Position numbers and translations under genes: made by a program. 64,000 nt of DNA from Daphnia carinata. Its lineage: Eukaryota. The stretch covers positions 11,160,001-11,224,000 of the forward strand of contig NC_081331.1 of the NCBI RefSeq assembly GCF_022539665.2, read 5' to 3'. The notes beneath the pieces were generated by a model that had not been told where the DNA came from, did no database searches, and was given only the letters and a program-made list of their open reading frames with translations. Of the stretch, positions 1 through 59,200 are shown one piece after another. The stretch's first letter is position 1, and each line of letters opens with the position of its first letter.

Positions 1-2167
1 TGGCTGGAGGAACAATTGAAAAATGGATAAGATAATACAACAAAAGGATGATAAGTATAAACATTATTCTATTTGTTTTGAATTATTAATTATTGTTTAT
101 TAGATCAAATTATGGACCTGCAGGCTCAATTATTGCAACAGCACAAAATATTAGATAACAGCAAAGCTAAGGATGGTAAGGCCTAATACATAATGATTCT
201 ATTTATTTGCTTTTATTGATTTGTGTTTTGTAGCTCAAAGTTTGAGTCTACAAGCTCAGCTAGGGGAAAAGAACAAATTGGAACGGAACAGTTTCCAAAC
301 AGTGAAGGAGGTTTTTCCAAACTCAAACCTGACTGAACATGAGGATGAATTGGCATTAGGCGAACACAGTCAGGTACCTAAACTTTTCAAATAAGAATTC
401 AAAATAAGTATAGAATTTTAACAAACAATTATTTATTGTTTAGTTATTCAGTCTACCACCTGACAGTGTGTTAAATTTAAATTCTGTTAGTGCTGCACAA
501 AAAGAATCGTTAGTAATCAGCCCATGCAGTGAAGGAAGTGAACAATTGTGGGACCGTATTTGGGCCAAAAATGGGTGTGGTATGGAAACCAAGATATGGC
601 ACAAGTTCAACATGAAACATGGATTAGGTACTTTTCGGTTTTATGTCTATTGAAAAAGTATTTTTAATGCTATTATTTTGCATTCACAGTATTTAATGGG
701 GGATCAAATCAAGTCTGGAAGTGTTACAGGATGGAAGAGTCAGCCTACAGATGAAAAAACACTGAGAGTGCATTACCATTAAGGTATGAGGTAAAGTAAT
801 AGAGTATGCAAATTGTCTAATGAGAAGTACCATCTTGTGTTAATGAATCCAGTACAACAGCAATCCTTTATAGTTCTGTCACAGCTAGAAACCTCAAATA
901 ATTCTGCTTCTCTGTCTAAAGAACAACTTGTCCTTTACGTTCAGAGTGTTGGGGAAACTGGGTACTTAAATGGCCCTAAAGATGTTTTAATTTTGCTGCC
1001 ATTGCAGAGATGAACATCATACATGGACTCTTTAGGTATGAAAGGATTTTTCTTCAAATAATTTTGAATTTATGACGAAGCATTTCTCCTCCTTTTTGCC
1101 AACCAGGTCTAATCTACCAAAAAAAATTTTATCCAAAAGGAAAGGATTTTCATGTACTGGGAACACAACTATCAACAATGCAACATTGTACAGGTGCTAG
1201 TTTATCATTCAAGAGCCTTATACAATGATGTTAATCTGCAATTTGTATGTCCTTCCCCAAGCTTCCACCAGAAGTTGAATCTGAGTCATGTAAGTTACAT
1301 GATCAACAGTTGATATGTTTAACGGTGTTGTTTTTCTTTTCTCAATATAGGTTAATAGTAACATTGCATCTGAAAAAATTCTTGGTTGGGGCAAGACACT
1401 GAATAAATTGTATTGATTGGATGGATGACATGACATTTCTATACTTAATTCGGATTCCCCAGACGGTATTTGATATTAAAAAAATTGAAGTGCATATCTG
1501 GGCTCCCTTCTTTTCTGAAGCCCCGTTTCCCCTTGACTCGTAATAAGCCCGTAGGGGGTCATGCCCCTACTGTACGGTATATATAAAAATAACATATACC
1601 GAGGTTTGGAGGGCTCTGGCCGGAAAGGGGACGTGGGGTGCCGCTTAGTCCGATGATGTGTTCACGGAGGGCGATGTGGCTACCCACAAATCCGAACTAA
1701 AGGTTAATCGCTCCTGTAAAAATGTTCCAAATCTTCAGCTCTTCTTCCGGCTTCTCTTAGCCAATCACCGGGTAATCTCCCCGGTGGGTCAACAAGGCAG
1801 TGTCTCCCCCTGCCTGGGTTGACGGCAACTTTTGAAAGGGCTATTGTGCCTTTTTAAAGTTGCAAAAATAATTGTAATGTGCAGAGAATTGTCAATAAAA
1901 TTTTTTTATAAAATATTTTTTGCAAAATTTGTTTCTTTCATTGTCTGTGTTAGCTGTGTTCACACATTACATTTATCAACTTTTTTTTTTTTGTTTTGCT
2001 TTATTTATTTTTGTGACCTGTGATGGTAAGCATTGTTTCCATTGGTTTATCGTTTATCTGTAAGCATTCAATTATTATCCAGGGATCGAACCCTGGATGT
2101 TCGGCGTACCGCGCCGATGCTCTACCAGTGAGCCATGAATCATATGATGACAAGTTGGCTTTTTTCT
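1..2167 (+). mobile_element. Partial copy of the type-A arm of the inverted-repeat element (5' end outside the window; truncated just after the first tRNA-like cassette)
   Basis: Appears identical to 7353-9519 (offset 7352; ORF-track peptides identical). Homologous to 50298-52330 and, in reverse, to 52790-54938. Identity with the 7353 copy stops at ~2168. Confidence 0.85.
2079..2135 (-). pseudogene. tRNA-derived cassette 1 (A box, D arm, anticodon arm with GGT, B box; no acceptor stem)
   Basis: Reverse complement TGGCTCACTGGTAGAGC-A-TCGGC-GCGGTAC-GCCGA-ACATC-CAGGGTTCGATCCCTGG. Confidence 0.75.
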
Positions 2168-3650: not shown

Positions 3651-4000
3651 AAGGTAATATAGTGAACAAATTGCTCGACTATTTTATCTGGCTAAGCAAA
3701 ACGAGAAACAAGATTAATCTGACAATTAAGATTAATTTAAAACAACGATTTCTTTCTATCAGCTTACCCGAAAAGCCTTATCTTTTTCAGATTTCACCTC
3801 TGTATCTAGAGCACGTACAGTTGATGTGAAACCCCTGAACAAGAGGTATTCTTTTACCAATTCATCCATTTGCTGAACGCACGACATTTTTCATTACTCC
3901 TACAAAACATCGAACATAAACATTTGGTTTCTGACATCTTACGGCAACAATAAGCGCAGTGCGTGTAAACTGTGGAAATACGAAGAGGAAGGATAAAATG

Positions 4001-6520
4001 TATGGCAATCCGTTTTACCAAAACAAAACAAAAAAAAATATCGCATTTTTTTTTCTTTTTTCTCCCTTAGCCATCTACGTCGTCTTGGTAACTACATAAA
4101 TTCGTAATGGTAGCAGCTAGTTAGGACGACGGCAGCTAGCACACACACACAGACAGCAGCAGTTAATAGTTATGGATAGGCTTGACGGTACTGGCGCGCT
4201 AGCATTCTGTCAAATATTCGGTGTAATTTTGTTGTTTGATACTTCAACACATTAAAATAATTCGAAAAAATCCTACATATTGAATCGAATATCTCTTTTA
4301 TTATCAGGTTTCATTATTTTATTAACCTAGATACTCGTTCATGAAATGTAAATTAAATTCGATGACAGCTGAAGAATCGCAACATCAAATTCTTGTATGT
4401 CATACATTTCGTAACGTTCATCCCTCTTCAAGAACTCATAAAAGTGTTTTTGAATTTTTTTTTATTGATTTTCAGGCAATGATTGAAAAAGTCAATAACT
4501 CATCAATGACCACACAAGTTTACGCGAGTGGCGAATTCCTGTTTGGATTTGGGTTTCCCATGCCGCAGAAGAAGGGGAAAGAGTAAACTGGCAACAATGT
4601 AGATCTAAACTCCTTCTCCTGGGTTTTGGCACACAGCAGTCCGAACTTTCTTATTTTGTTACGTTTCCTTCATTAAATAACTAATTGTCGGATTCGCATT
4701 TTACCGTCAATTAGCTTTCACTATTCCTTTTGGTATGTACCAAACAGTGTAAGACAAGGAACTTAAAGGTTGGTGTGCAACAGAGGTTAAAACATTTTGA
4801 AGCATATTGTTTGGATATCTTAAGTGATAGTGATGGGAGCTCCGTTATTTTATTCAGATTCGTAACATCATCAGTTTAATAAATTTTTAAAAGGCTACAT
4901 TCAATTTCTGTAAGAGTGTTCAATGGGAAATACTTCATTTTATGTTTCACTAGGAAAAAAGATGGAAGACTTGTAAATGAAATGCCAAAGTGCTCTCTTG
5001 CAATGCCAAGTAAACCATGAATTGACAGTTCCATGTTAAATTTAATCTATACTTCAACCTTAAACAAACAAATTGTTTTAATCTGTTCAGGTTTCAAGAA
5101 TTAACGTGCTCAACCACATTGCTCTACTGTAAAATGACCAGATACTGCTTTGGTTGCCCATGCCAGTATTTCTCTAGTAAAACACTCTTATGTGAGCTTA
5201 ACGTAAAATTAATCAGCAAAATGTTTTATTACGACACATTTTCTTTCTTTTCATAGCTGAATGGTTGTAGTGAATTTGAAAAGGATTCTCATTGCGGCCA
5301 GCCATCCCAGATTTAAGAAAGGTTGGCAGCAAAGGTGTCAATTTTCATGATTCGTCAATCACATTCCAAGTTGAGGTAGGGGTGTGTTTCTTATTAAATT
5401 TATATTGACTTGATGATGAGTGAAATGATTGCCTAATTACAAATGGCAGCTTGTCTGCAAGTTTACTTTAAACATAACACTTTCACGTACATTTGACACA
5501 GCCAATATTATCCTTATTTGTTCTTAGTTTGCTATTTGGTTGTCTAATTGGAATTTTAGTTTTTGAATGAGATTCAGGGTTGATGTTGCCGGTGTTACAT
5601 TAAAGGATTAAGTTCTTATTCACTAACATTTCAAGGACCAATGTCTTCTTAAAATTTACTTGTAAGTAAAAATGAAGCTTTTATATAATTATGTATTATC
5701 TATGTAACTCTTTCCTATTCAATAGGAAAGGATTTAGTTCATTCTGTGAACATATCTACCAACGATGCAAGCTCCGATGGGACGTATCGTATATTGTGCG
5801 TGTATATATCAAGTCTGTTATGATTTGCAGTATCTCTTCCGAAGCTTCTCTCAGAAGAATATGCTAAGCAATCAACTCACGAATCATATAAGGTACGAAA
5901 TATATATATGAAATCAAGAATTTTTATGCTTAATGGAGTTTTATTGTCTTTTTGTAGAATAATAATAAATTTTAATCTGAAAAGGTTCCTTGTTTGGGGC
6001 AAGGTACTGAATAAAGTATTATGATTGGATACACTACATGGAATTTCCATACTTTATTCACGTTCTCATTTAAAACCGGTATTTAATATTTAAAAAATTC
6101 AAGTGCATATCTGGGCTCCCTTCCTTTCCGTAGCCCCGTTTCCCCTTGACTCATAATAAGCCCGTAGGGGGTCATGCCCCTACTGTACGGTATATATAAA
6201 AAAAACATACACCGAGGTTTGGAGGGCTCTGGCCGGAAAGGGGACGTGGGGGTCCGCTTAGTCCGATGAAGTGTTCATGGAGGGCTCTGTGGCTACCCAC
6301 AAATCCGAATTAAAGGTTAATCGCTCCTGTAAAAATGTTCCATTTCTTCGGCTCTTCTTCCGGCTTCTCTTAGCCAAGCACCGGGTAATCTCCCCGGTGG
6401 GTCAACCAAGGCAGTGTCTCCCCCTGCCTTGGTTGGCGGCAACTTTTGAAAGGGTTGTTTTCCCTTTCGAAAGTTGCAAAATCATTTACGTGTGCAGAGT
6501 AATGTCAATACAATTTTTTT
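4001..6520 (+). mobile_element. Solo type-B arm: same terminus and GC-rich module, different interior
   Basis: Starts TATGGCAATCCGTTTTACC + poly(A) + TCGCATTTT + TAGCCATCTA. Ends in a diverged GC-rich module (~6085-6520). The interior has short intron-like GT..AG segments and a last-exon peptide IIINFNLKRFLVW resembling type-A LIVTLHLKKFLVG. Confidence 0.7.
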
Positions 6521-6544
6521 TATTTAAAAAAAAGCAAGCATATA

Positions 6545-7045
6545 TCTTTTTTACTTTTGTCAAAATCGGAAAAAATCGAAATCTCTCGGATTGCGAAGAA
6601 AATCCCACCGTATAACCCAATTTTAACGCTGATTCAGAAAAAGCCATTTGTTTTTATCTCATGTAAGCCGTTTTTGAAATAATCGTCATTTAAAGATAAA
6701 GTCGGGCTTATTTTTTTAGACCCAACTTCCCCGTTTTTTACGTTTTATTCAAAAACTATGAGTCCCACGAGAAAACAACTCTCATATTCGTGATGCTTGT
6801 TCAATTCTGCATCGAAACCATGTATTTAAAGCGAAATCTAAAATTTTGCCAAAATTGAATAAGTAAGAAGGCCTTCTCACTTTTCCAATTTTCTTCAAAT
6901 CCTAGATTTCAAGAAAAATACACTATTCCGATTTGAAATTGATCGCTGATCACAAAAATGGGGCATATTTTTATATCAGGCCTCTAGTTTTTAAATTAAC
7001 CGTAAAAAACAGAAAGTCGGGCTTATTTAGTCGGGCTTAAAATTT
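6545..7045 (+). repeat. AT-rich dispersed repeat with internal subrepeats (TTTTGTCAAAATCGG.., AACGCTGA.., GTCGGGCTTA)
   Basis: The same motifs recur in the same orientation at 49230-50110 and 55123-55860. Confidence 0.7.
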
Positions 7046-7149
7046 TTATCGGTCAGTGTATGTAGAGAATTAATTAGAAACGTGACCGTTAGATGGCGAT
7101 AGCAGTAAAACAGAAAAAAAAGGCCCATATTTTTTATTTTTATTTTGGG

Positions 7150-7199
7150 TAAAACGGATTGCATATATGGCAATCCGTTTTATATGGCAATCCGTTTTA
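7150..7199. other. End-to-end junction of element termini: 13 bp inverted repeats around a 7 bp spacer, plus a third 13-mer
   Basis: TAAAACGGATTGC-ATATATG-GCAATCCGTTTTA-TATG-GCAATCCGTTTTA read directly. Confidence 0.8.
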
Positions 7200-9430
7200 C
7201 ATAAAAAAAAAAAAAATAAAAAATCGCACTTTTTTCTTTTTTTCCGACACGTAGCCATCTACCGCTCAGACTCATTATTACTGGCGTAGGCAATTTCAGT
7301 CCATTGGATGCCATTCGCAGTTAGTTCAGTAGCGTGGATGGAGGATAACGCGTGGCTGGAGGAACAATTGAAAAATGGATAAGATAATACAACAAAAGGA
7401 TGATAAGTATAAACATTATTCTATTTGTTTTGAATTATTAATTATTGTTTATTAGATCAAATTATGGACCTGCAGGCTCAATTATTGCAACAGCACAAAA
7501 TATTAGATAACAGCAAAGCTAAGGATGGTAAGGCCTAATACATAATGATTCTATTTATTTGCTTTTATTGATTTGTGTTTTGTAGCTCAAAGTTTGAGTC
7601 TACAAGCTCAGCTAGGGGAAAAGAACAAATTGGAACGGAACAGTTTCCAAACAGTGAAGGAGGTTTTTCCAAACTCAAACCTGACTGAACATGAGGATGA
7701 ATTGGCATTAGGCGAACACAGTCAGGTACCTAAACTTTTCAAATAAGAATTCAAAATAAGTATAGAATTTTAACAAACAATTATTTATTGTTTAGTTATT
7801 CAGTCTACCACCTGACAGTGTGTTAAATTTAAATTCTGTTAGTGCTGCACAAAAAGAATCGTTAGTAATCAGCCCATGCAGTGAAGGAAGTGAACAATTG
7901 TGGGACCGTATTTGGGCCAAAAATGGGTGTGGTATGGAAACCAAGATATGGCACAAGTTCAACATGAAACATGGATTAGGTACTTTTCGGTTTTATGTCT
8001 ATTGAAAAAGTATTTTTAATGCTATTATTTTGCATTCACAGTATTTAATGGGGGATCAAATCAAGTCTGGAAGTGTTACAGGATGGAAGAGTCAGCCTAC
8101 AGATGAAAAAACACTGAGAGTGCATTACCATTAAGGTATGAGGTAAAGTAATAGAGTATGCAAATTGTCTAATGAGAAGTACCATCTTGTGTTAATGAAT
8201 CCAGTACAACAGCAATCCTTTATAGTTCTGTCACAGCTAGAAACCTCAAATAATTCTGCTTCTCTGTCTAAAGAACAACTTGTCCTTTACGTTCAGAGTG
8301 TTGGGGAAACTGGGTACTTAAATGGCCCTAAAGATGTTTTAATTTTGCTGCCATTGCAGAGATGAACATCATACATGGACTCTTTAGGTATGAAAGGATT
8401 TTTCTTCAAATAATTTTGAATTTATGACGAAGCATTTCTCCTCCTTTTTGCCAACCAGGTCTAATCTACCAAAAAAAATTTTATCCAAAAGGAAAGGATT
8501 TTCATGTACTGGGAACACAACTATCAACAATGCAACATTGTACAGGTGCTAGTTTATCATTCAAGAGCCTTATACAATGATGTTAATCTGCAATTTGTAT
8601 GTCCTTCCCCAAGCTTCCACCAGAAGTTGAATCTGAGTCATGTAAGTTACATGATCAACAGTTGATATGTTTAACGGTGTTGTTTTTCTTTTCTCAATAT
8701 AGGTTAATAGTAACATTGCATCTGAAAAAATTCTTGGTTGGGGCAAGACACTGAATAAATTGTATTGATTGGATGGATGACATGACATTTCTATACTTAA
8801 TTCGGATTCCCCAGACGGTATTTGATATTAAAAAAATTGAAGTGCATATCTGGGCTCCCTTCTTTTCTGAAGCCCCGTTTCCCCTTGACTCGTAATAAGC
8901 CCGTAGGGGGTCATGCCCCTACTGTACGGTATATATAAAAATAACATATACCGAGGTTTGGAGGGCTCTGGCCGGAAAGGGGACGTGGGGTGCCGCTTAG
9001 TCCGATGATGTGTTCACGGAGGGCGATGTGGCTACCCACAAATCCGAACTAAAGGTTAATCGCTCCTGTAAAAATGTTCCAAATCTTCAGCTCTTCTTCC
9101 GGCTTCTCTTAGCCAATCACCGGGTAATCTCCCCGGTGGGTCAACAAGGCAGTGTCTCCCCCTGCCTGGGTTGACGGCAACTTTTGAAAGGGCTATTGTG
9201 CCTTTTTAAAGTTGCAAAAATAATTGTAATGTGCAGAGAATTGTCAATAAAATTTTTTTATAAAATATTTTTTGCAAAATTTGTTTCTTTCATTGTCTGT
9301 GTTAGCTGTGTTCACACATTACATTTATCAACTTTTTTTTTTTTGTTTTGCTTTATTTATTTTTGTGACCTGTGATGGTAAGCATTGTTTCCATTGGTTT
9401 ATCGTTTATCTGTAAGCATTCAATTATTAT

Positions 9431-9487
9431 CCAGGGATCGAACCCTGGATGTTCGGCGTACCGCGCCGATGCTCTACCAGTGAGCCA
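9431..9487 (-). pseudogene. tRNA-derived cassette 1 (GGT anticodon loop)
   Basis: Identical to 2079-2135; A box TGGCTCACTGG, B box GGTTCGATCCC. Confidence 0.75.
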
Positions 9488-9610
9488 TGAATCATATGAT
9501 GACAAGTTGGCTTTTTTCTAGTCACTTGTGGACTTGCATTTACACTTAGAATAAAACTGAAATGCAATTCTGCAACATACTCTTCTACCTTTATTCTACT
9601 TCATTTTAAC

Positions 9611-9681
9611 ACATCTAGTAAGGTTTGAACCCAGGGTAACAGTTATCGCAGCTGAATGCTCTACCACAGAGCTATGGACAT
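9611..9681 (-). pseudogene. tRNA-derived cassette 2 (degenerate)
   Basis: Reverse complement ATGTCCA-TAGCTCTGTGGTAGAGC...CTGGGTTCAAACCTTAC-TAGATGT. A and B boxes and a partial acceptor stem are present; the anticodon arm is poorly paired. Confidence 0.6.
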
Positions 9682-9784
9682 TATAAAAGCAATACAAAGA
9701 TAAACATATAGTTGTGAAAGACTGCATAAACATCCTAGACGATAACATATGATATGCGATAATAAAAATTTTATATATATCTCG

Positions 9785-9840
9785 TGGCTCAATGTTAGAG
9801 CATCGGCGTTGCACGCTGAATGTCTGAGGATCGATTCCCA
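9785..9840 (+). pseudogene. tRNA-derived cassette 3 (TGC, Ala-like anticodon loop)
   Basis: TGGCTCAATGTTAGAGC-A-TCGGC-GTTGCAC-GCTGA-ATGTCTGAGGATCGATTCCCA; B-box variant GGATCGATTCC. Confidence 0.7.
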
Positions 9841-11139
9841 TGCCAGTAAAACAATATACAAATAAAAAATTACTTCAGAAAATATCAAGGTATTACACGT
9901 TGTTCCTTGTCTAAGTTCATGAATTCAAAAAGTGTAATAAATAATAATTGAATACTTACAGATAAACGATACAACGGTGGCAAAAACAATAAAATTGAAT
10001 TGCGCTAGCTGAATAAAAAAAAAAGTTGATAAATGTAATGTGTGAACACAGACAATGAAAAAAAACAAATTTTGCAAAAATATTTTATAAAAAAAAAATT
10101 ATTGACAATTCTCTGCACATTACAATTATTTTTGCAACTTTAAAAAGGCACAATAGCCCTTTCAAAAGTTGCCGTCAACCCAGGCAGGGGAGACACTGCC
10201 TTGTTGACCCACCGGGGAGATTACCGGTGATTGGCTAAGAGAAGCCGGAAGAAGAGCTGAAGATTTGGAACATTTTTACAGGAGCGATTAACCTTTAGTT
10301 CGGATTTGTGGGTAGCCACATCGCCCTCCGTGAACACATCATCGGACTAAGCGGCACCCCACGTCCCCTTTCCGGCCAGAGCCCTCCAAACCTCGGTATA
10401 TGTTGTTTTTATATATACCGTACAGTAGGGGCATGACCCCCTACGGGCTTATTACGAGTCAAGGGGAAACGGGGCTACGGAAAGGAAGGGAGCCCAGATA
10501 TGCACTTCAATTTTTAAATAATTAATACCGTAATACGCGGGAATACACAGGCGACTGATGGAGGGAAATTCAATTCCGTACTTCAAATTATTATAACTTT
10601 TCGTTATCACATCCCAACCAGAAACCTTCGCAGGTTCACTATTGCTATTAATCTAAATTAAGAAAATAAAACATAGATAAGCATGAGACGTTCTTATTGA
10701 TATCGCTTACATGGTACATAAATTCATCATCTGCCATATTCCTGTAGATTCCTGGCAGGAGGTTCTAAAAGGCTATGCAGTTGCAAATGATCACCATAGC
10801 CAAAACTTGAATACGAAAGTTTTGGGAGAACCTTTCGTGTTGGCCACAGAGACCTTACATGGGCTTTCCGATTGGACGTTCCATGCACCTTAAAAAAAAA
10901 AAAAAGAAAGGTTACATAGTGGTTGTTTTGATCACTAAACGTGAAGGTAAAGAAGGTACATGGTCTCGGCAGTCTTGACGACAATTTCCATTATAACCTC
11001 ATATCACCTCATTTTATGGGAAAAGAATTTCGTAGGCGACGGTTCAGAATAGAAAATGGTTGCATTCAAATCTTTTGGCAGGTGGGAATAAGGCATGTCG
11101 CCTTAGGGAGTGCAAACCGCGATTTTCAAAACTATTAAA

Positions 11140-11995
11140 TGCTTGTTAGCCATTGAAAGATTGCTGGCTGACGCAGACAATCGTTTGGGACATGATTAAT
11201 GAGCTGCTTCGTGGATAAAGCTCGTTTTTTTAGTCCTCTCCAGGATGACATGAATTCCAGCATCTTCTACACATGTATCAGCACTTTGCGATACACCAAT
11301 TAAAACAATTTAAAAATTTAAAATAGTACCACCTTTTAATGTTTTTGACTCCATGATTCATCTTCGATGCAATTGTGAAGGCAAGACAACTGACCTATGG
11401 TGATTTATTCATCACACTTGCCATAACCGTTTTCCCAATGTATCAGCTATTCTGCCAACAGTAGTTTACTAATACAACATTGACGATTAAAATTAGAAAA
11501 CTAAACAAACTCAGCAGAAAAGCATTACCAGGGAGTAACATCTTGCATGTTGAAGAAGAATCCTTGGTTTATCATGTACATGGCAGAATATCCACATTGC
11601 CTGGATGGCGCAATCCTTTGCATAATCACACAAATAGTAACTAAAACATACTGAATTGAAACAAAATTTAAATGAAGTTTTACCCAACAGCCGCCTGCAC
11701 CTCTGAATTCCAAAACTACGTCTACACATTCATATCAAGCTTTTCCAGCATGTCTCACCTTTGGCATTTGTTTAAATCATTCCTTCAAAAATTTTTAATA
11801 AATGTAAATAAAGTAAACAATTGATATTTATGTGACGTCGGAGTACCATTTGGCTATCAAGCATTCCATACAAGATAGGCATTTTGAAGAATCAGTGGCA
11901 GCAATCAAGTGCTACAATTTGAATATGGGCTAGGTGTTATAGTCGCTGAGGGCTCTCAATCCCTAAACTGAACCTTGCTCACTGATGTGACAATC
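11140..11995 (-). pseudogene. Decayed intron-containing Crypton-like (DUF3504/ZMYM-type) tyrosine recombinase
   Basis: Minus-strand exon fragments in canonical order: EQG/SLGIESPQRL (11980-11940), DYAKDCAIQAMWIF..RILLQ (11640-11530), CW..YIGKTVMASVMNK..KMNHGVK (11460-11340), EDAGIHVILERTKK/RALST (11267-11210). Contains stops and frameshifts. The whole arm-Y gene spans roughly 10590-12185. Confidence 0.5.
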
Positions 11996-12245
11996 TATAA
12001 AAGGATTTAAATCTTAATTAATGAGACATGCAGGATACTGTATAAAATTCTAGTAAAGATGGTACCAAATGCTGAGTTACTAGAAATTTTGCCTGGGAAA
12101 TCTCCAACTGACCATGTGAAACATAAGTCAGCTGTACTGCATTTGCAAATCCATTGTTCAAGTAACCAAATCCAATCCATGTCTGAAGGAATGAATGAGA
12201 AAATTAAATAGGAATCTGGCCGCTAGATGGCCATAGCTGTAAAAA

Positions 12246-12523
12246 GGTCTAAAATGAATAATTTTTATTGCAATGAATAGCCCTTAATAAGGGCTTTCGA
12301 TTTCTCTAAAATTTAAAGCAGGATTTCAATAACAAAAAAAAATTCATATATCTTTTTCAGAGTTTTTGCGATCCAAAGATATAGTGGATCCATACGGTAA
12401 AACAAAACAAAATGCTTTCGTTCTCAATTTTTTTGTTTTGGAAAATTCTACTTTAAATTTTAGAGAAATCGAAAGCCCTTATTAAGGGCTATTCATTGCA
12501 ATAAAAATTATTCATTTTTGACC
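12246..12523. mobile_element. MITE-like hairpin with a near-perfect ~70 bp terminal inverted repeat
   Basis: GGTCTAAAATGAATAATTTTTATTGCAATGAATAGCCCTTAATAAGGGCTTTCGATTTCTCTAAAATTTAAAG (12246-12318) is inverted at 12451-12523. No clear TSD. Confidence 0.7.
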
Positions 12524-20641: not shown

Positions 20642-23600
20642 TTAGCCGTCTAGTTGACCGCATTCGTAAGCGTTCTGGTAGCTCTGCGTATTCTTGTCTT
20701 CCGAATCAAGCTTAATCATATCATCAATACGCAGAATGGTAATAGCCGCTTCAGTAGCAAACTTCAGAGACTTAATCTTGGAAACAGCAGGCTCAAAGAC
20801 ACCAGCTTGTCGGTTGTCCCTAACGGCACCTTCCATCAAGTCCAACCCGATCCTTGACAAACGAGAAAGATATAACAATAATTCTTAACAGCGCTAATAA
20901 AACATTATTTACCATTTCAAATTAGCGTGCTCAGGCTTTGACTGCGATGAGTGATGGTAAGAACGCATTTTAGCCACGAGATCAGTCGCGTCCTTGGCTG
21001 CGTTGACTGCTAAGGTCTTGGGAATGACCAATAGCGAATGGGCGAATTCTGCAATCGCTAGCTGTTCTCGAGAGCTCTGTATGTCATAAAGTATTATTAC
21101 AATAATTTAACTTATTTTCCTTTGAAAATGTGTCAACTTACCAATGATGTAGCGAAGCTTTCCAAATAAATAGAGAGTGCAACCTCCACAGCGCCGCCAC
21201 CGACGACTAGAGTTTTGGATTCTAGAACGCGTTTGACGACGCAAAGGGCATCGTGCACCGAGCGTTCCATTTCGTCGCAGTAGAAGTCATTAGGACCACG
21301 CAGAATAATGGAAGCAGCTGTGCGCGCTTTGGTTCTACGTTGAAGGAAATGGAAGACGTGAAAAATTACAAATGTTTCTGGAAAGCCATAAACTAGAATT
21401 CTTCACAATGCCATAATGCTACGGCTGCTTAGAGCAAAGACAGGCTTGCACGGAAATTCAAATTCGGTCAGCTTATATGGTACTATGCACATTCCAAATA
21501 GTATGGGTAACAGACGAAACAAAACTGCACCTCTAGTCAACAAAAAGAAGGCTCATCATTCGCTTAAGGCTGGAGAGGAAAAGAAGGTCACCATCCCATT
21601 CTGAAAATCTAAGATTATTTCTACATGTTGAACTGCGTTCTGAAAGACGAGCCTCGGGCTTATATCCGACAAAGTAAGCTCTATACGGTATTTTTTTTTT
21701 TTGTGGGACTTCCGCACATGAGGACCTCCTTTCTAGAAGATGGCTAAAGCAGAAGGTACAACATACCTTCTTTGTTTCTCTTATGCATACAGGCACTATA
21801 ATCTAGTCTCACAGTGGCAGCCGGCTCGGTTAAAAGCATAACATAAGATGCAGTGCAACAAGAGACTACTTTTCCTGTTCTCGGTATCTATTCTTGGCTT
21901 TGGTGATCAACAAAGTCATGCACTGGATCCTAATGTGAGAAGATCGTGGATACGAGAGCTCGCGACACGCGTGAAAGCTAAAAAGGGTATCTACGAGAGT
22001 GAAACAACCCCTTTTTCGGGAAAAAACGAACATCAGTACCACAATGAACACCCAACTGCGGAGGCAGCTTTGGTGACTATGGAAACAACGCAGGAATTTT
22101 CTAAGAGTTTTGGCTTCGGAGCTATCAGAACACAGCACAGGCAAAATACGTATCCTTACCAAACGCAAACTACGTATCCTTACCCAACGACAACCCTCCC
22201 ACGGTTACCCACGGTCCCTTCTGTTGCAATAGCACTTGGAGCTATAGCGATCGCAATCGCAGTAGGCGTTGCTACCACACATAGTACGGAAAAACAAATA
22301 GACGAAATCGATCTCGTCATCAGGCAATTTGACAATCAAACCCCTATAAATGAGTGTCCGATGCCTGTATTTGGAAACGATTTTCCGCGCGATGGCTGTG
22401 AAGATAACGCCGTACGAGTAGCAAATGGAAAGTGCTTCCCCGTTCTGACACGAGGCCCTTGTGAAAATAACCGTCATTGGATAACGATTGATCCCATTAC
22501 ATTAAAGGTAAATGAAGAGCAATTGTTTGAATAAAAGAATTGAATTTTCCATGGAAGGAATGGTCAATTTCAGGGAAGATGCACTCCAAGACTTTGTGGT
22601 CGAGAAAGAGTACTGGTGGTACGGGACGGACTTTGTCACGACGTCAACGATCCGAACGAATGTCAAGGTGGGCGGCGTCTTTATTATACAGCTTACGGAG
22701 ATCCGATATGTGATTGCCCCATTGGGCAATATCCTTTCCCTAACCCTCACGACAACTGCGTCCCACTTTTTACCCAAGGTATTCATTCAATCGTTACACG
22801 AAAGTACAACATAACAAAGATTTATAATAAGTCAACTTTCATCCACTATGCTCTGCATAAAGGACCTTGCCAAAATGGATACGTAGTAACAATTGGTGAA
22901 CAGGGTCGACTTGGCTGTACTCCAACCAAATGTGAATCAATCGACAATGACAACTTGTCCCGGCAGCTTGTGCCGGCCAACGATGGCGTATGCTACGCCC
23001 TTGGGTCACGTGGACCCTGCGCCACTACATCTCAGCTCTTAGGTTACGATATCTTCAAGCGCCGTGATCATTGTGTCGATATTCTAAACCCCTCCTCGCC
23101 CTATTTTTCTTGGCCCGCACAAGACGATTTTCTTGATAGCATCTACAATCAGCTCCATCCGGAATATGACGAATTTAGAGTATCCTTTGTTTACGAAAGT
23201 CTAACGGGGAAGAACGAAACACAACAACGAAGACAAGGTGCGAGCACAATAGGAGCAATCCAATTTCCTAGCACGTCAATTGGAAGTCTTTTACATCCTT
23301 GTCGCACTGGAGCTCGACGAGGAATAAATTTTAAATGCACCAATCCTTTAGTGTAAATCAATAACATTTTATATCTAAAACAACGCAACGGAATATTTAA
23401 TCCTATCTCTTTTTTTTGTAGGCCTACACTAAGGACAATGCAGCTCTTGCAAGTTGTTCGACCTGGATTGAGAACAAACTGCGAAGGCAACGCTTTGTTT
23501 GTCGCTGCCACTGGCCAGTGCCGAGCCAGGTTCTAACCCATGAACTAACAATAACGCTCAAAATGTTTCTAACAGATAGCTTTTAACAAGATGTCTCGCA

Positions 23601-48755: not shown

Positions 48756-49229
48756 GGTAGTTTACGAACTTCAAAGGTGTGGAACAGAATGCCAAATACA
48801 TCGCAAAAAAATTTGCATTTTTCGTTACTCCAGAAGAAATTCTCTATACTGTGATCAGCAACCGAACAAAAAAAGCCCACTTTCTCTTTGTAGTTCAAAT
48901 CTTAAAATATTAAGGCTTCCTTCGAAGCAAAATGCCCTTCTTGTCTTTTTGTTATTTTTCCTTTACTGGTTGAAAAACATTTATGAATAAACAAGAAATC
49001 TGTCGTCTTGTTTTCACCGGTGGAATTTCACGAATGCAACAGACAAAAATTTAAGTTCGATATACATTTGGTTATCTTAAATGTTGCGGAACCCATTCTT
49101 CCATGTATGATGTATCAGAAGGAATCCTTAGCACGATTCTGGATCCACAACACACATTACAGCTCTTGGAATGCAATAAAAGTAAAGAAGTGAATGATGA
49201 AGTGTTGTTAGTGCCCTCAAACTTAATTT

Positions 49230-50110
49230 TTGGTTTTATACGTTTAATTAAAAAACTATAAGACCCATTGGAAAATGAACTTGATTTCCGTGATTTTCAT
49301 TCAATTTTGAATCGAAATCATGTATTTCAAGTGATATTTAAATTTTGACCAAAAATCAAAAAGTGGGAAGGCTATGGCCTTCCTTCTTTTGTCAAAATCC
49401 GCAAAAAATGAAAACCCCTAGAAACCGATAAAGATCACACTGCACGACTCAAATCAAACGCTGAATTCGATCGAATGGTTTATTTTCTCGTCAAACCAAC
49501 TGTTTTTTGCAATAAACGGAAACAAAATGCTGGTATGGCACATATTTAGGTTTGTTGTTTTTTACGATTTATTAAAAAACTATAAGCCGTAGAAAAAAAT
49601 AGACGAAAAAATATGTGATTTGCATTTAATTTTGAAGCTAAATCATGTATTTTTATAGCTATACCTAGATGTTTCGAAAAAAATTAAATAGGCGATAAGG
49701 CCGGGCTTATTTTGTCGGGCTTAATTTTTAGTACGGCAGAAATTCAGTCTTGTAATTTTGACATTAAATTTGATTTAAATTAATCTAAAATAAAGCGTTG
49801 ATTTCAGGAAAAATATTTGTTTTCTCGTCAAGCCAGCCGTTTGTGTAATAAATGAAATTAACGCGAATCTGGCGCGCCAGCAATTATCGTCCGGTAGCTC
49901 CATATAGCCTTACCACTTTTGTCAACATCGGCCAAAAACGGCATCTCTTGAAATTGAAAAAATCACACGACATAATCAGAATTGAACGCTGACTTTGATT
50001 AAGTGATTTTTTTTCTCAGCCGATTTTGAAATAAAAGGAACAACGGGCTTTCGGCGCACCAACTTTATGTTCTGGTTTTTACATTTTTAAAAATAAATGT
50101 AAGCCTAATG
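49230..50110 (+). repeat. AT-rich repeat, left flank of the foldback element
   Basis: Shares subrepeats with 6545-7045 and 55123-55860 (GAAGGCTATxGCCTTCCTxCTTTTGTCAAAATC, GTCGGGCTTA). Confidence 0.7.
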
Positions 50111-52450
50111 GAATATGGCAATCCTTTTTATATGGCAATCCGTTTTACATAAAAAAAAAAAAAAAATCACACTTTTTTCTCTTTTTTCTACCCGTAGCCA
50201 TCTACCAGTCGGTTTCGTTATTATAGGCATGTAAGCAATTTGAGTTAATTGTATCCCATTAGCAGTTAATTGAGTAGCGTGGCTGGAGAAAAACTCGTGG
50301 CTGGAGGAACAATTGAAAAATGGATAAGATAATACAACAAAAGGATGGTAAGTATAAAGATTATTATATTGGTTTTCAATTATTAATTATTGTTTATTAG
50401 ATCAAATTATGAAGCTGCAGGCCCAATTATTGGAACAACACAAAATATTGGATAACAGCAATGCTAAGGATGGTAAGGCCTAATACGTAATGATTCTATT
50501 TATTTGCTTTTATTCATTTGTGTTTTGTAGCTCAAATTTTGAGTCTACAAGCTCAGCTAGGGGAAAAGAACAAATTGGAACGGAACAGTTTCCAAACAGT
50601 GAAGGAGGTTTTTCCAAACTCAAACCTAACTGAACGTGAGGATGAATTGGCATTAGGCCTAAACTTTTCAAATAAGAATTCAAAATAAGTATAGAATTTT
50701 AACAAACAATTATTTATTGTTTAGTTATTCAGTCTACCACCTGACAGTGTGTTAAAGTTAAATTCTGTTAGTGGTGCACTAAAAGAATTGTTAGTAATAA
50801 GTCCATGCAGCGAAGGAAGTGAACAATTGTGGGACCGTATTTGGGCTGAAAATGGGTGTGGTACGGAAACCCAGAAATAGCACGAGTTCAACATAAAACA
50901 TGAATTAGGTACTTTTCGGTTTTTTGTCTATCAAAAGAGTATTTTTAATGCTATTATTTTGCATTCACAGAATTTTAGTGGGGGATCAAGTCAAGTCTCG
51001 AAGTGTAACAGGATGGAAGAGTGAGCCTACAGTTGAAAAACACTGAAAGTGCATTACCATTAAGGTATGAGGTAAAGTAATAGAGTATGCAAATTGTCTA
51101 ATGAGAAGTACCATCTTGTGTGAATGAATCCTGTGTAACAACAATCCTTTATAGTTCTGTTATAGCTAGAAGCCTCAAATAATTCTGCTTCTCTTGCTAA
51201 AGAACAACTTGTCCTTTACACTCAGAGTGTTGGTGAAGCTGGGTACTTAAATGGCCCTAAAGATGTTTCACTTCACTGGCATTGCAGCGATGAACATCAT
51301 ACATGGACTCTTTAGGTATGAAAGGAATTTTCTTGAAAAATTTTTGAATTTATGATGAAGCTTTTCTCCTCCTTTTTGCCAACCATGTCTAATCTACAAA
51401 AAAAAAATTATCCAATAGGAAAGGATTTTCAGCATACTGGGAACACAACTATCAACAATGCAACATTCTAGGGGTGTTATTTTATCCTTCAAGAGCCTTA
51501 TACAATGATTTTCATCTACAATTTGTATGGCCTTTCCCGAGCTTCTGCCAGAAGTTGAATCTATGAGTCATGTAAGTCACATGAGCAACAATTGAGATGC
51601 TTAATGGTGTTGTTTTTCTTTTCTCAGTGTAGGTTAATAGTAACATTGGATCTGAAAAAATTCTTGGTTGGGGCAAGACACTGAATAAATTGTTGTAATG
51701 ATTGGATGGATGACATGATATTTCTATACTTCATTCGGATTCCCGAGACGGTATTTGATATTTAAAAAATTGAAGTGCATATCTGGGCTCCCTTCCTTTC
51801 CGTAGCCCCGTTTCCCCTTGACTCGTAATAAGCCCGTAGGGGGTCATGCCCCTACTGTACGGTATATATAAAAACAACATATACCGAGGTTTGGAGGGCT
51901 CTGGCCGGAAAGGGGACGTGGGGTGCCGCTTCGTCCGATGATGTGTTCACGGAGGGTGACGTGGCTGCCCACAAATCCGAACTAAAGGTTAATCGCTCCT
52001 GTAAAAATGTTCCAAATCTTCAGCTCTTCTTCCGGCTTCTCTTAGCCAATCACCGGGTAATCTCCCCGGTGGGTCAACAAGGCAGTGTCTCCCCCTGCCT
52101 GGGTTGACGGCAACTTTTGAAAGGGCTATTGTGCCTTTTTAAAGTTGCAAAAATAATTGTAATGTGCAGAGAATTGTCAATAAAATTTTTTTTATAAAAT
52201 ATTTTTTGCAAAATTCGTTTCTTTCATTGTCTGTATTCGCTGTGTTCACACGTTACACTTTTTATATTTAGCTTGCTTAATTCACCTTTATTGTTTTTGT
52301 CACCTTTGATGGTAAGCATTGTTTCCATTGGTTTATCGTTTATCTGTAAGTATTATTTATTACACTCTTTGAATTTGAGAGACTCTCTCTTGAGATTCAA
52401 GGAACAATCTGGATATTTTATGAAGTAATTTTGTATTTTGTTTTAATCGT

Positions 52451-52507
52451 ATGGGAACCGATCCCCAGACATTCAGCGTGCAACGCCGATGCTCTAACAT
52501 TGAGCCA
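52451..52507 (-). pseudogene. tRNA-derived cassette 3 (TGC)
   Basis: Reverse-complement homolog of 9785-9840. Confidence 0.7.
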
Positions 52508-52617
52508 CGAGATACATCTAAATATTTTATTATCGCATATCATATGTTATCGTCTAGGATGTTTATGCAGTCTTTCACAACTATATGTTTATCTTTCTTT
52601 TGCTTCCATAAGGTTCT

Positions 52618-52681
52618 TAGCTCTGTGGTAGAGCTTTTATCTGCGATACCTGTTACCCTGTGTTCAAACCTCAGTAGATGT
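52618..52681 (+). pseudogene. tRNA-derived cassette 2 (degenerate)
   Basis: TAGCTCTGTGGTAGAGC...GTGTTCAAACC; homolog of 9611-9681. Confidence 0.55.
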
Positions 52682-52805
52682 GTAAAAATGAAGTAGAATA
52701 ATGTAGAAGAGTATATTGCAGAATTGCATTTCAGTTTTATTCTAAGTGTAAATGCAAGTCCACAAGTGACTAGAAAAAAAAGCCAACTTAAAATCATATG
52801 ATTCG

Positions 52806-52862
52806 TGGCTCATTGGTAGAGCATCGGCGAGGTATGCCGAACATCCAGGGTTCGATCCCTGG
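52806..52862 (+). pseudogene. tRNA-derived cassette 1 (GGT)
   Basis: TGGCTCATTGGTAGAGC-A-TCGGC-GAGGTAT-GCCGA-ACATCCAGGGTTCGATCCCTGG. Confidence 0.75.
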
Positions 52863-55122
52863 ATAATAATAGAATGCTTACAGATAAACGATAAACCAAT
52901 ACCCGTCACCTTACCATCAAATGTGACAAAAACAAATAAAGCAAAGCCAAAAAAAAAAAATTGATAAATGCAATGTGTGAACAAAGCTAACACAGACAAT
53001 GAAAGAAACGAATTTTGCAAAAAATATTTTAGAAAAAAAATTTTATTGACAATTCTCTGCACATTACAATTATTTTTGCAACTTTAAAAAGGCACAATAG
53101 CCCTTTCAAAAGTTGCCGTCAACCCAGGCAGGGGGAGACACTGCCTTGTTGACCCACCGGGGAGATTACCCGGTGATTGGCTAAGAGAAGCCGGAAGAAG
53201 AGCTGAAGATTTGGAACATTTTTACAGGAGCGATTAACCTTTAGTTCGGATTTGTGGGCAGCCACGTCACCCTCCGTGAACACATCATCGGACGAAGCGG
53301 CACCCCACGTCCCCTTTCCGGCCAGAGCCCTCCAAACCTCGGTATATGTTGTTTTTATATATACCGTACAGTAGGGGCATGACCCCCTACGGGCTTATTA
53401 TGAGTCAAGGGGAAACAGGGCTTCAGAAAAGAAGGGAGCCCAGATATGCACTTCAATTTTTTTAATATCAAATACCGTCTGGGGAATCCGAATTAAGTAT
53501 AGCAATGTCATGTCATCCATCCAATCAATACAATTTATTCAGTGTCTTGCCCCAACCAAGAATCTTTTCAGATCCAATGTTACTATTAACCTATATTGAG
53601 AAAAGAAAAACAACACCGTTAAACACATCAATTGTTGATCATGGAACTTACATGACTCATAGATTCAACTTCTGGTGGAAGCTTGGGAAAGGACATACAA
53701 ATTGCAGATTAACTTCATTGTATAAGGCTCTTGAATGATAAACTAGCACCTGTAGAATGTTGCATTGTTGATAGTTGTGTTCCCAGTACATGAAAATCCT
53801 TTCCTATTGGATAAAATTTTTTTTGGTAGATAAGACCTGGTTGGCAAAAAGGAGGAGAAATTCTTCGTCATAAATTCAAAATTATTTGAAGAAAAATCCT
53901 TTCATACCTAAAGAGTCCATGTATGATGTTCATCTCTGCAATAGCAGCAAAATTAAAACATCTTTAGGGCCATTTAAGTACCCAGTTTCCCCAACACTCT
54001 GAACGTAAAGGACAAGTTGTTCTTTAGACAGAGAAGCAGAATTATTTGAGGCTTCTAGCTGTGACAGAACTATAAAGGATTGCTGTTGTACTGGATTCAT
54101 TAACACAAGATGGTACTTCTCATTAGGCAATTTGCATTACTCTATTAATTTACCTCACACCTTACGGTAATGCACTCTCAGTGTTTTTTCATCTGTAGGC
54201 TCACTCTTCCATCCTGTAACACTTCCAGACTTGATTTGATCCCCGTTAAAATCTGTGAATGCAAAATAATAGCATTAAAAATACTTTTTCGATAGACAAA
54301 AAACCGAAAAGTACCTAATCCATGTTTCATGTTGAACTTGTGCCATTTCTGGGTTTCTGAACCACACCCATTTTCGGCCCAAATACGTTCCCACAATTGT
54401 TCAGTTCCTTCACTGCATGAGCTTATTACTAACGATTCTTTTAGGGCAGCACTAACAGAATTTAAATTTAACACACTGTCATGTGGTGGACTGAATAACT
54501 AAGCAATAAATAACTGTTTTTTAAAATTCTATACTTATTTTGAATTCTTATTTGAAAACTTTAGGTACCTGGCTGTGTTCGCCTAATGCCAACTCATCCT
54601 CACGTTCAGTTAGAGATGAGTTTTGAAAAACCTCCTTCACTGTTTGGAAACTGTTCCGTTCCAATTTGTTCTTTTCCCCTAGCTGAGCTTGAAGACTCAA
54701 AATTTGAGCTACAAAACACGAATGAATAAAAGCAAATAAATAGAATCATTACGTGTTCGGCCTACGATCCTTAGCTTTGTTATCTAATATTTTGTGTTGT
54801 TCCAATAACTGGGCCTGCAGCTTCATAATTTGATCTAATAAACAATAATTAATAATTGAAAACCAATATAATAATGTTTATACTTACCATTTTTTTGTTT
54901 TATTATCTTATCCATTTTTCAATTGTTCCTCCAGCCACGCGTTGTTCTCCAGCCACGCTACTCAATTAACTGCTAATGGGATACAATTAACTGAAATTAC
55001 TTACATGCCTGTAATAACGAAACCGACTGATAGATGGCTACGGGTAGAAAAAAGAGAAAAAAGTGCGTTTTTTTTTTTTTCCGCCATTTTTTTTTTTTTT
55101 TTATGTAAAACGGATTGCCATA

Positions 55123-55860
55123 AAAAACGACATCTCTTGGAATTCGACAAAAATCCCAGAGTATAATCAAAATTTGACGCTGATTTCGATTCAGTGATTG
55201 GTTTTCTCATTAGAGCAGCCGTTGCAAAAATAGTTAGAAAACAAGATATATTTCTGCTGCATCACGCTAGCGCTGTAGCGTACTGGCGCGCTAGCATGGC
55301 GATACATATTCGATGTATTTCAAAAACAATTGACTTAATGAAAAAAATAGCAATTTTCCCACAATTAGCATTCAATTTTGCGTATATCCTGTAGTATTCA
55401 ATCAACTCTGATGAGTTTCAGTTTTTGCAGAAAAAAAATTTTAAGTCCGACTAAATAATAAGCCCGACTAAATAATAAGCCCAATTTTTTTTTATTTTTT
55501 CGTTTTTTACGTTTATTTTAGAAATCATGAGGCCAATTGGAAAATAAATTTGATTTTCGTAACCAGCACTCAATTCTCAATCGAAATCGTGTATTTTAAG
55601 TGAAATTTAGATTTTGGCCAAAAATGAAAAAGTGAGAAGGCTATAGCCTTCCTACTTTTGTCAAAATCGGACAAAAAAGACATGTCTTGAAATTCGACGA
55701 AAATCGCACAGTGTAATGAAAATTGAATGCTGATTACTATTCAGCTATTGGTTTTTTCATTAAACCAACCATTTAAAAAATAAAATAAAATAAAGAGATG
55801 TTAGCAACCCAACAAACCCACCAAAAACTCGAGCTTATTTTGTCGGACTTATTTTTTGAA
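55123..55860 (+). repeat. AT-rich repeat, right flank of the foldback element
   Basis: Same subrepeats and orientation as 49230-50110. Confidence 0.7.
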
Positions 55861-56203: not shown

Positions 56204-57580
56204 TCAATTAAAAGCGAGGTCGGCATGAATTTGTAGCTCTGTCGAATTGATAAGATGGTCCACAGCTGGCAGGACCTCTGTCGCTTCCACACTGCCCATT
56301 AGCTTGCAGGAAATCGTTCGGTCGGCAACCGAATCCAGGCCTAGACGGCCGATGGACATCACGTGTTGGTCTGCTCGGGCTGTAAACAAGAATTCAAAAT
56401 CAGATATTTTTGTTTCGAACAGAATGAAGGGCAAGAAGCTTACACCAAAGGATTTGTGCACTTGAAATTGTTTCCGTTACGATTGCCCAGTTGACAGGGA
56501 TTCAGCATAGATGTCGGGAATACACTGCTTTGTTGAACTATTCCAAAACTAGCTTGTCTCCGGTTCCTCGATAGCTGTTGACTTCGAAAAAATGTAACAC
56601 TCTTTTTTACGGGTTCTTCAGATGTGTGATTGTAGAGCTCGTCTAAAAGAGCATTTTCCTTTGATGAAGAAAAATACGGTGTCGTTGGATCCTCTATGTT
56701 GAGACACTGTCCTTCAGCCTGAAAGATATTGTAACCGAAGAGTTCAGAATACGAGCAAGGACCACGAGTTCCTAAAGCATAGCAGAAGCCATCATCATCA
56801 TCATCATAGCCTATGGTCCTCGATTCTTTAGCAGGCACGAGTTGCAGGAGAAAATCTTGATAGTATCTGTCAAGAGATGGACAAGTGTTGGAACCGCATT
56901 CCAATTTTCCCGACGAACTGACTGTCACCACTTTATCGTATGGACACGGTCCTGTAGAGAAATCGGTGCGAGAAATTAAAATCGAAATCCAACAAATGAT
57001 TTCGTCATGTTTTTGTACCTTGAGTAAACAAAGGAACGCAATCATCTTTATCCGAAGGGAAAGGATATTGTCCAATCGGACAATCGCATATTGGATCTCC
57101 GTAAGCTGAGTAATATAGACGTCGACCTCCCTGGCATTCGTACGTATCGTAGATATCGTGACAAAGCCCGTCGCGACCAACAAATACTCGTTCTCTGCCA
57201 CACAAGCGAGGAGTGCATTTTCCCTGAAAGTAGAACAGAAAAAATTGATTGATTGCACGTTTTATACATTAAGAATTTTCGGTTATCGAAAAAGTACCCA
57301 CCTCGTAGGTATACGGGTCGACCGTTACCCAGTACAGCAAACTTTTGCACGGTCCTTTTTTCAAAACAGGGTAACAATATCCGTCGTCCTTAAATCGAAC
57401 AGCGTAGTCTCCGCAACCATCATCAGGGAATGAAGCATTTGATGGCTTTTTGTTTTGGGGAATGCTTGCAGCATCATAAGTTGGATAACTATTATAAGAA
57501 GTTCCAGGGGAGCTGGGGTAGGTTGAATTGCTTGCCAATGCCAGTGAGAAAGCAGCCATAAATATCACTGCGGCAAACAT
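56204..57580 (-). CDS. Cys-rich DUF4789-like secreted protein, paralog 3 (4 exons)
   Basis: MFAAVIFMAAFSLALAS signal; [67 protein letters not shown]. Confidence 0.82.
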
Positions 57581-59200
57581 GTTTCTAATGTAATTAGAAG
57601 ACACACAGAAACTGATGTTGGTCTTGAGATTGGCCTAGTTGATTTTCCCCCGAAACAAGTTTGTCTCGGGTTTTCCCCTGGACTTTATCTAATGACAAAC
57701 TCGATTCGGTTTTTAATTCGTTGCTGCCCACCGATTTCTAAAAATAACAAATAATTATGTTTAAAAAACGTTGACAAACTTGTTTCCGGCTACGCTATCT
57801 AAATACCGTATTTGATGGAAGAACAGTCACACCACACTGGTCGGAATACGAGTAGCTACTGTTAGCCAATGGCGAGTTGATTTACAAGGGATTCTTAGTT
57901 TGAACTGGTCGGTCTTCAAGAACGCGCTTGGAACCCGTCCACAGCCAAAGGGGAATTAAGATAGACTAACCAGTTCGGTTTAGCTCCTGCCCCTTTTCGG
58001 TTTTTCCGTAAAAAAAAGACATTGATTGTCACACTTCAGCAACAACCCTTCGTACGGCATAATTGGAAAAGAGAAAGGAGGCGGTAAACCCTGCAAACCC
58101 CGCAAGTGTAAATCATCTACGACGTTTTGTTATGAAAGGCGTAAAAAACTAAACAGAAAACACTAGTCATGTTCAATTCAATGTACGGGAGAACCTTGAG
58201 GTGAACATGAATCAGAGAACGATATCAATCTCGATTCAGAAAAAGTATCATATCGTGATCGAGAAGGCCGTAAGACGGAAGGTTAATATCTAGTAGAATA
58301 GGCCGCCACTCCCCACTCCCAGGCACGTTTTTGTGGTCCGCGCCCAACTTTTGGGCGTTTAAACTTCCGATCGACTGACCTTCTTATTCAAATTCGAACG
58401 ACGCGGAAGTCTGGCGTAATAGTGTAAACGTGCCGAACGTGCTGTACACGAATGGAAAGTTTGCATTCCTTGTACGGTTGCTGCTTGCTGTTTGCGCAAC
58501 ATTTTCTTTTGTATGGGGTTCGCGTCATCATTAAAACGTCTTGCTGAGTCAGCTGTTAAAATTGAAAGACTTTAGAAGGTCAAAAGAGTTAAATAACATT
58601 TTTGCGGTAACCGATTACCAATATTAGTTGGGATATTAGTCCTTGCCGATAATGCGGGTTATTTTGATATCGCCGGAATTACGATCACGCAGATAGGTCA
58701 AGGTTCGACCACCGCTATAGCAAGTTTTTATTGCAGTGGCCAAAAACAGCGAAGCGGCCAACGCCCCGTCTGCTTGACACAGTCTCAATATTCTTTGTCC
58801 TAAAAAAAAGATTTCATCATCAAAATCTTTACAAATGTTCTTTACAAATACGTCATTCTTTGGAAAACTCAACGAGTACCCGATAAGCCAGGAGAACACA
58901 ATGGACCCCATTGTGAAAGGTATGTTGCTGCTACCTAAATTTTTGGTGAATCTTTTGCGAAGTCATGATACAATTTGGCCTTCACATAACATGACTGCGG
59001 GGTAAAAATAATTACCACGCGTTGCGCAAGTTAAAAATCTAAAGATTAAATAAAGGGAGGAAAAAAAAAAAAAAAAAAAGCAAACAAAAAAAAACAATAT
59101 AGGAAAAAAAAAAACAAAAAAACAATTATTTCCCAACTAGGGATTACATAAACTGTACTATAAATCAACAAGTTTATCAATAACAATAACTTTTACAAAC

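Follow-up and report, generated by a model that had tools for sequence, protein, structure and literature searches.

A foldback element with IS3EU-type ends in Daphnia carinata, probably a non-autonomous composite transposon with recombination-swapped arms

We analysed a stretch of 64,000 nucleotides of the Daphnia carinata genome (contig NC_081331.1, positions 11,160,001 to 11,224,000 of the forward strand), hereafter the window, whose first letter is position 1. At 50114-55122 the window carries an element with two inverted arms that converge on a common spacer. With a probability of about 60%, we regard this element as a non-autonomous, IS3EU-like composite transposon whose arms have been swapped by recombination. 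On this best reading it works like a non-autonomous element of IS3EU type; it is not filed as a member of IS3EU because no transposase was found and a target-site duplication (TSD) of 6 bp is absent at the one testable site.

The anatomy of the element was examined by self-BLAST of the window, which shows a foldback made of two inverted arms of ~2.2 kb around a spacer of ~500 bp. Positions 50126-52362 match 55127-52864 in inverted orientation at 90.7% identity (BLASTN), and the global alignment of the left arm (A') and the right arm (A) gives 93.5% identity over 2208 aligned columns, bearing out an earlier claim that two inverted arms converge on one spacer. Both arms have the same order from the outside inward: a terminus, an inward-facing spliced unit, a shared last intron-like segment and a structured module of ~410 bp with a poly(A) signal. 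The preliminary description had placed the element at 50131..55122. Its right end stands, and the left end moves to 50114 because a 17-bp tandem copy of the terminus precedes 50131. The parts of the element, with the evidence for each, are as follows.

50114..55122: the complete element, made up of inverted A' and A arms with the spacer between them
50114..50130, plus strand: extra 17-bp tandem copy of the terminus (Tandem Repeats Finder, period 17; the same at 7166-7182)
50131..50215, plus strand: left-type terminal repeat, composed of the 18-bp terminus, an A-run, a T-run and the GCCATCTA motif; its signature is the IS3EU TAYGG..CCRTA
50320..50908, plus strand: arm A' gene, exons 1-4 of a coiled-coil open reading frame (ORF), from GT..AG joints in run X1, in-silico splicing and RefSeq homologues
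50971..51571, plus strand: 3' interior of arm A', with stops in all frames, minor splice joints at 51069>51224 and 51312>51416, and no Pfam family
51572..51632, plus strand: last intron-like segment, from predicted splice sites and alignment; none of the X1 joints falls here
51772..52185, plus strand: GC-rich hairpin module ending in AATAAA (52179-52184), likely the shared terminal exon
52363..52863: central spacer; its counterpart at 9431-9941 lies in the opposite orientation and shares 85.5% identity with it
52444..52514, minus strand: tRNA-like remnant beta (Rfam tRNA, 23.5 bits)
52618..52670, plus strand: tRNA-like remnant gamma, with A and B boxes; start and end are approximate
52806..52861, plus strand: tRNA-like remnant alpha (Rfam tRNA, 27.8 bits)
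53043..53458, minus strand: right-arm module, with four derived alleles in common with the left-arm module
54190..54915, minus strand: right arm A gene, P0007-type, spliced ORF open for 172 codons
55031..55122, minus strand: right terminal repeat, a left-type end in inverted orientation

A key feature of the element is its termini. The 18-bp terminus is found exactly at 4001, 7183 and 50131 and inverted at 55105-55122, with near copies at 7166 and 50114 and, inverted, at 7149-7165. A second, right-type end is found in inverted orientation at 7083-7165 and, in truncated form, on the outer margin of another arm, Y; the two share 80% identity over 54 bp. The end repeats measure 80-120 bp, with 67-83% identity between full ends. 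The termini read TATGG..CCATA in inverted orientation, which is the IS3EU signature TAYGG..CCRTA, and the terminal inverted repeats (TIRs) exceed 30 bp, as in IS3EU. The accessible part of one account gives IS3EU these ends, TIRs >30 bp, 6-bp TSDs and two opposite genes (PMC12730594); extracts of two others describe TA..TA ends, a 6-bp TSD and captured gene fragments for IS3EU/GingerRoot (PMC10045372, PMC6839031), and an extract of a fourth calls the structure and function of IS3EU largely unexplored (PMC11934779). Within what these extracts state, the Daphnia element resembles IS3EU/GingerRoot, including Styx of Zymoseptoria, in its ends, TIRs >30 bp and captured gene fragments (PMC12730594, PMC10045372, PMC6839031, PMC10853768). 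Two opposite genes also give it an IS3EU-like layout, a likeness in layout only. It is unlike IS3EU as described there in its lack of a detected transposase and of a 6-bp TSD at the tested site, in its 2.2-kb inverted arms, in the structured module that these carry internally and inverted, and in its tRNA-like spacer.

The TATGG termini had been likened in the preliminary description to those of CryptonS, with which the element does share the pentamer at its ends. This lead fails because the TATGG repeats of CryptonS are direct and those here are inverted, the orientation of the IS3EU signature (PMC12730594). In the available text on CryptonS, the repeats are 5-6 bp long, TIRs are absent, a tyrosine recombinase is encoded, and the hosts are oomycetes and diatoms (PMC3212892); Pfam searches found no tyrosine recombinase here. 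Elsewhere, the terminus 18-mer matched 2 viral and 12 metagenome loci, all 14 of them chance matches lacking other parts of the element, and a 22-mer of the module had no match in either viral or metagenome contigs. Within the window, 7149-7200 holds three termini in a row, namely the right-type end (one base shorter), the 17-bp terminus copy and the full left end, an arrangement that suggests end-targeted insertion or slippage.

Copies of the same parts occur elsewhere in the window.

7166..12245: sister element composed of arm A, spacer and arm Y; the outer Y terminus is lost beside a palindromic miniature inverted-repeat transposable element (MITE)
4001..7165, plus strand: sister element composed of a left end, arm B, module, older repeats and the right-type end at 7083-7165; it abuts the terminus at 7166
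1..2167, plus strand: arm A, its module and the alpha remnant, in a copy that breaks off inside the spacer and has 100% identity to 7353-9519

The copy at 7183-12245 matches 55129-51614 at 90% over 3571 bp, covering arm A, the spacer and the second module. Arm Y lacks its outer terminus, of which a subterminal motif at 12224 is the only remnant. The same spacer lies between the arms in both two-armed elements (2/2), which are 43 kb apart, so the earlier claim that A'/A and A/Y elements share one spacer is sustained. The alpha side of the spacer faces arm A in 3/3 cases, and the beta side faces A' or Y. All six module copies in the window sit downstream of an arm interior. Together with the recurrence of the spacer in both two-armed elements, this supports linkage of terminus, module and spacer within the window, as had been proposed, over nesting by chance. 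B (4001-6529) had been described as a third interior with the same ends; it does share its terminus (82%) and module (91-92%) with the other arms, and the spacer is not part of it.

Upstream of the shared 600-800 bp, comparisons among A, B and Y gave scores of 32, 31 and 36 versus shuffle means of 33-35 and shuffle maxima of 42-45. A by-eye protein likeness among the three was ruled out by these shuffles, and neither Y nor B has a frame or ORF piece above threshold in Pfam. As judged from sequence, the three interiors are not detectably paralogous. Of the earlier proposal of a single family of transposable elements (TEs) with swappable paralogous cargo, what survives is one TE-like family in which the beta-side arms are interchangeable; the paralogy does not, the scores lying within the shuffles.

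Elements 43 kb apart repeat one and the same succession of parts around three unrelated interiors, the module follows the last intron at the equivalent place in all arms, and arms that are 6.5% different have element-specific module alleles in common. These data make it very improbable that independent repeats, namely a short MITE with TIRs, a GC-rich repeat and remnants of a tRNA-derived short interspersed nuclear element (SINE), were nested by chance, the palindrome arising from a one-off local inversion, even though the region is rich in unrelated old repeats, the B module has no spacer, and the local duplicate at 1-2167 is truncated.

Common to the arms are their last 600-800 bp, an intron-like segment followed by the ~410-bp module ending in AATAAA. 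The intron-like segment occupies the equivalent place in each arm (A 8642-8702, Y 10710-10653, B 5893-5957 and A' 51572-51632). The modules of the A, A' and Y arms are 97.8-99% identical, and their identity to that of B is 91-92%. The module is thus conserved far more closely than the ORF, and it is likely a shared terminal exon of the arms. Its predicted fold lies beyond that of shuffled sequences (z -3.85 and -4.67), and 52001-52150 reaches z -6.4 versus a background minimum of -1.5 in 30 windows. The module has no Rfam family match and no hammerhead core. Being 91-99% conserved across unrelated interiors and lacking an Rfam family, it is a candidate new structured RNA element. A reading of the module as a solo long terminal repeat, considered for its TG..CA ends and TATA-like box, was dropped; there is no TSD around it, and homology runs on upstream.

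Splicing of the arm gene was examined in X1 contigs, which skip the GT..AG segments 50346>50400, 50471>50530 and 50906>50969 and have two minor joints further in; the run is labelled 'DNA?', and DNA copies that lack introns are another possible source of these joints. RefSeq proteins carry the same exon joins. Contig depth does not rank the parts of the element; the low cover at the center of the spacer and a blank in run X3 were therefore left out of account, and the small share in a wetland metagenome (run X2) was not taken to indicate habitat. The introns of arm A' are 50348-50400 and 50473-50530, followed by 50909-50970. When introns are removed in silico, the reading frame stays open for 162 codons in the arm A that starts at 7166 and for 172 in the right arm. 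In arm A' a 16-bp deletion near 50658 has taken away the third splice donor, which leads to a stop at codon 86. The 'spliced decayed gene' of the preliminary description therefore applies to A' and not to the A arms, whose spliced ORF of 162-172 codons is kept. Predicted splice sites favor the inward strand over the other in every interior, with counts of 4 vs 0 in A, 2 vs 0 in Y and 7 vs 1 in B; the exons of Y and B are predictions, the X1 joints concerning arm A/A'.

The arm A protein (140-170 amino acids) consists of an N-terminal coiled coil and a short W/C/H-rich stretch. It has no Pfam family above threshold and nothing significant in PDB, and its AlphaFold model, with a predicted local distance difference test score (pLDDT) of 43.6 and an N-terminal helix only, is unusable. 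An Atlas lead to GCR1_C, with a score of 0.77, was at chance level; CryptonS is moreover without GCR1_C. The ratio of nonsynonymous to synonymous divergence (dN/dS) among the three arms is 0.38-0.47 over 133-139 codons. Because dN (0.054-0.069) is near the intron divergence (0.042-0.062), selection on the protein is weak or not established.

Protein clusters matched by the coiled-coil ORF number 15 and together contain 96 sequences, a number that includes isoforms and two annotation versions. The members listed comprise 45 + 11 family members, all from D. carinata, and lie on 10 different chromosome-size contigs (7.9-14.4 Mb). The RefSeq matches, all from this species, are 60-78% identical to the read-through query and up to 95-100% identical per exon, and many of the proteins are truncated at 102-131 amino acids. 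The listed family members carry 64 different gene ids, all from a single numeric range. Of these, 19 are no more than 4 away from another, forming 11 pairs versus 0.84 expected, and several pairs have identical proteins. This pairing fits what paired arms or local duplicates would give. Among 7991 scored candidates, the only longer relative, and the only one outside D. carinata, is D. magna OUZ56_012804, which shares the first 45 residues; it is 60-67% identical to the N-terminal coiled coil of arm A over 43 amino acids, and its C-terminal part is unrelated. The pattern of its motifs may be reminiscent of domains near TE-borne HECT genes, and the protein is a possible lead to a related D. magna element. 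A protein search restricted to 306-975 amino acids gave no match.

These data suggest that at least 64 RefSeq loci of D. carinata annotated as 'uncharacterized' are TE cargo, a status that bears on claims of gene-family expansion; copies of the element likely account for dozens of annotated 'uncharacterized genes'. We consider it improbable that the family is instead host-domesticated, consisting of convergent gene pairs whose products are a small coiled-coil protein and an RNA with a structured or hairpin fold, and which owe their spread to segmental duplication and have lost their mobility. Such a family would be in keeping with the spliced X1 joints, the dN/dS of 0.38-0.47, the module being better conserved than the ORF and the RefSeq-annotated proteins; however, dN close to intron divergence indicates weak protein selection, many copies are truncated, A' is without one donor, sharp TE-type termini bound every arm, and the family is found in one species.

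The spacer holds three tRNA-like remnants with A and B boxes. The Rfam tRNA scores of alpha and beta are both below the gathering score of 29, and ARAGORN finds 0 tRNA genes; the tRNA-like core described earlier is thus kept as three A/B-box remnants below the level of a recognized tRNA. A tRNA-derived SINE would have a tRNA-like head with A and B boxes; here the boxes are present and the Rfam scores lie below threshold. The beta remnant is 93% identical to its counterpart in the copy at 7 kb, and alpha is ~70% identical to beta.

Exchange between arms was traced through ten informative sites in four arms. Six upstream sites group the alpha-side A arms versus A' and Y, whereas four sites in the module center group the arms by element. 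B carries the state of the 7-kb element at 4/4 central sites, and so both arms of 50114-55122 share the derived states. These four shared derived alleles point to probable arm-to-arm conversion between the inverted modules within an element lineage.

Our results allow us to outline how such an element could arise as a non-autonomous IS3EU-like composite. The ancestor would have been a convergent two-gene IS3EU-like element with left- and right-type ends, similar to the A-Y element. Its inverted modules could fold back or pair, so that arms would be exchanged for one another, and homogenized, through conversion and crossing-over. Such swaps would yield A'/A foldbacks with two left-type ends that are still mobile, likely mobilized in trans by an unseen DDE transposase of IS3EU/GingerRoot type that reads the TATGG ends. 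The module may serve as the 3' end or a stability element of the arm RNA. The tRNA-like A/B boxes may act as a barrier between the two convergent transcripts, by analogy with the barrier role of TFIIIC sites. Through amplification, arm A would have reached many places in the genome, and its copies there now bear annotations as host genes.

Several observations weigh against this reading. In Pfam, 0 of 21 arm frames and 0 of 77 ORF pieces are above threshold, with no transposase or recombinase in the arms or in 14 kb of flanks, and the arm A protein is, at the level of its sequence, without a link to IS3EU proteins. We infer mobility from dispersal only, and no autonomous partner is seen. Gene ids follow genomic position only loosely. 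The conversion signal comes from 4 sites, and the two-armed elements number two. In the module, 1 of 118 pairs is compensatory among five sequences, and the fold is therefore predicted, not proven. Finally, a 6-bp TSD is found in 0 of 4 end pairings, with only one intact element testable; the candidate sites mismatch at 4/6 positions for 50114/55122 and at 6/6 for 50131/55122, and 4001/7165 has no 6-bp TSD either.

The target site was examined through the flanks of 50114-55122, both of which belong to one older repeat family with a unit of ~185 bp. When joined, the flanks can be aligned through the junction with an adjacent unit of the repeat, and 6 additional bases are not seen. Immediately to the left of the junction this alignment is weak, and a TSD could have been lost there through a later deletion beside the element. 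This possibility, at what is a single site, tempers the case for scarless movement via a circle with abutted ends, be it IS3-like copy-out/paste-in with end-targeted insertion or the work of a tyrosine recombinase, with the module as a dedicated site at which cassette-like arms are exchanged. We hold such movement to be unlikely. In its favor are the missing TSD, the alignment of the joined flanks across the junction, the right end that directly abuts a left end at 7165/7166, and the 17-bp terminus duplicate at 2 of 4 left-type ends (7166 and 50114); abutted-end junctions define copy-out/paste-in elements in the accessible part of PMC7780238. The same extract has bacterial junctions carrying spacers and normal insertions making TSDs, however, and IS3EU-related Styx is described as making 6-bp TSDs in the available text of PMC10853768. 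No recombinase was found in arms or flanks, and Crypton ends are direct repeats. Also quite unlikely is a cassette-exchange transposon with swappable spliced arms, a conserved hairpin module serving as a functional RNA or recombination site and allowing unrelated cassettes to be placed on either side of a tRNA-like insulator, and TSD-less insertion beside its own ends. Such integron-like or IS3-like copy-out/paste-in behavior was not found described for animal DNA transposons in the literature searched.

AT-rich older repeats of the ~185-bp unit, partly palindromic, occupy 49220-50113 and 55123-55800 and occur also at 6539-7045 within the B element. Close to where arm B begins, a 41-bp segment (4188-4228) shares 80% identity with 55280-55320 in the right flank of 50114-55122.

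The non-autonomous IS3EU-like element can also be compared with known systems of similar shape. It resembles foldback elements (Galileo, Tetris, FB), as far as the available descriptions go, in very long inverted arms (2.2 kb, 93.5% identical), non-autonomous copies and modular TIRs; foldback denotes a shape and not a superfamily. The arms of foldback elements are internally repetitive, non-coding TIRs that grow by conversion. Unlike these, each arm here is a spliced transcription unit, and the arms can be unrelated. The composite-like transposons KolobokP, in the extracts that describe them, are likewise eukaryotic composites with two long terminal modules, solo units and multimers, but their repeats are direct and flank the coding region, whereas the modules here are inverted and internal. 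An assignment to KolobokP, which needs long terminal direct repeats, was rejected, the repeats here being inverted in the self-BLAST. The literature searched, with Repbase/Dfam and subscription journals outside the search, contains no account of this family, nor of any element of IS3EU type that combines swappable spliced arms with an internal structured module and a tRNA-like core. As a young, spliced, many-copy family with IS3EU-type ends, it would make arm exchange, end joining and TSD formation testable within one genome.

Positions 1-2167 and 7353-9519 are identical over 2167 bp, whereas other copies differ by 5-9%. The copy at 1-2167 breaks off within the spacer, where the 5' part of an ARMC9 gene follows (minus strand, 2168-3900); it reflects either a very recent, local duplication interrupting this gene or a join made in the assembly. 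The palindromic MITE that adjoins the truncated outer end of arm Y spans 12246-12523 and is 75-77% identical to its own inverse. The window carries genes of arthropod type, namely ARMC9, bestrophin and DUF4789. Three paralogous DUF4789-type genes, at 16998-18821, 21842-23366 and 56440-57634, have 67-77% DNA identity, and a Pfam match is shown for the last.

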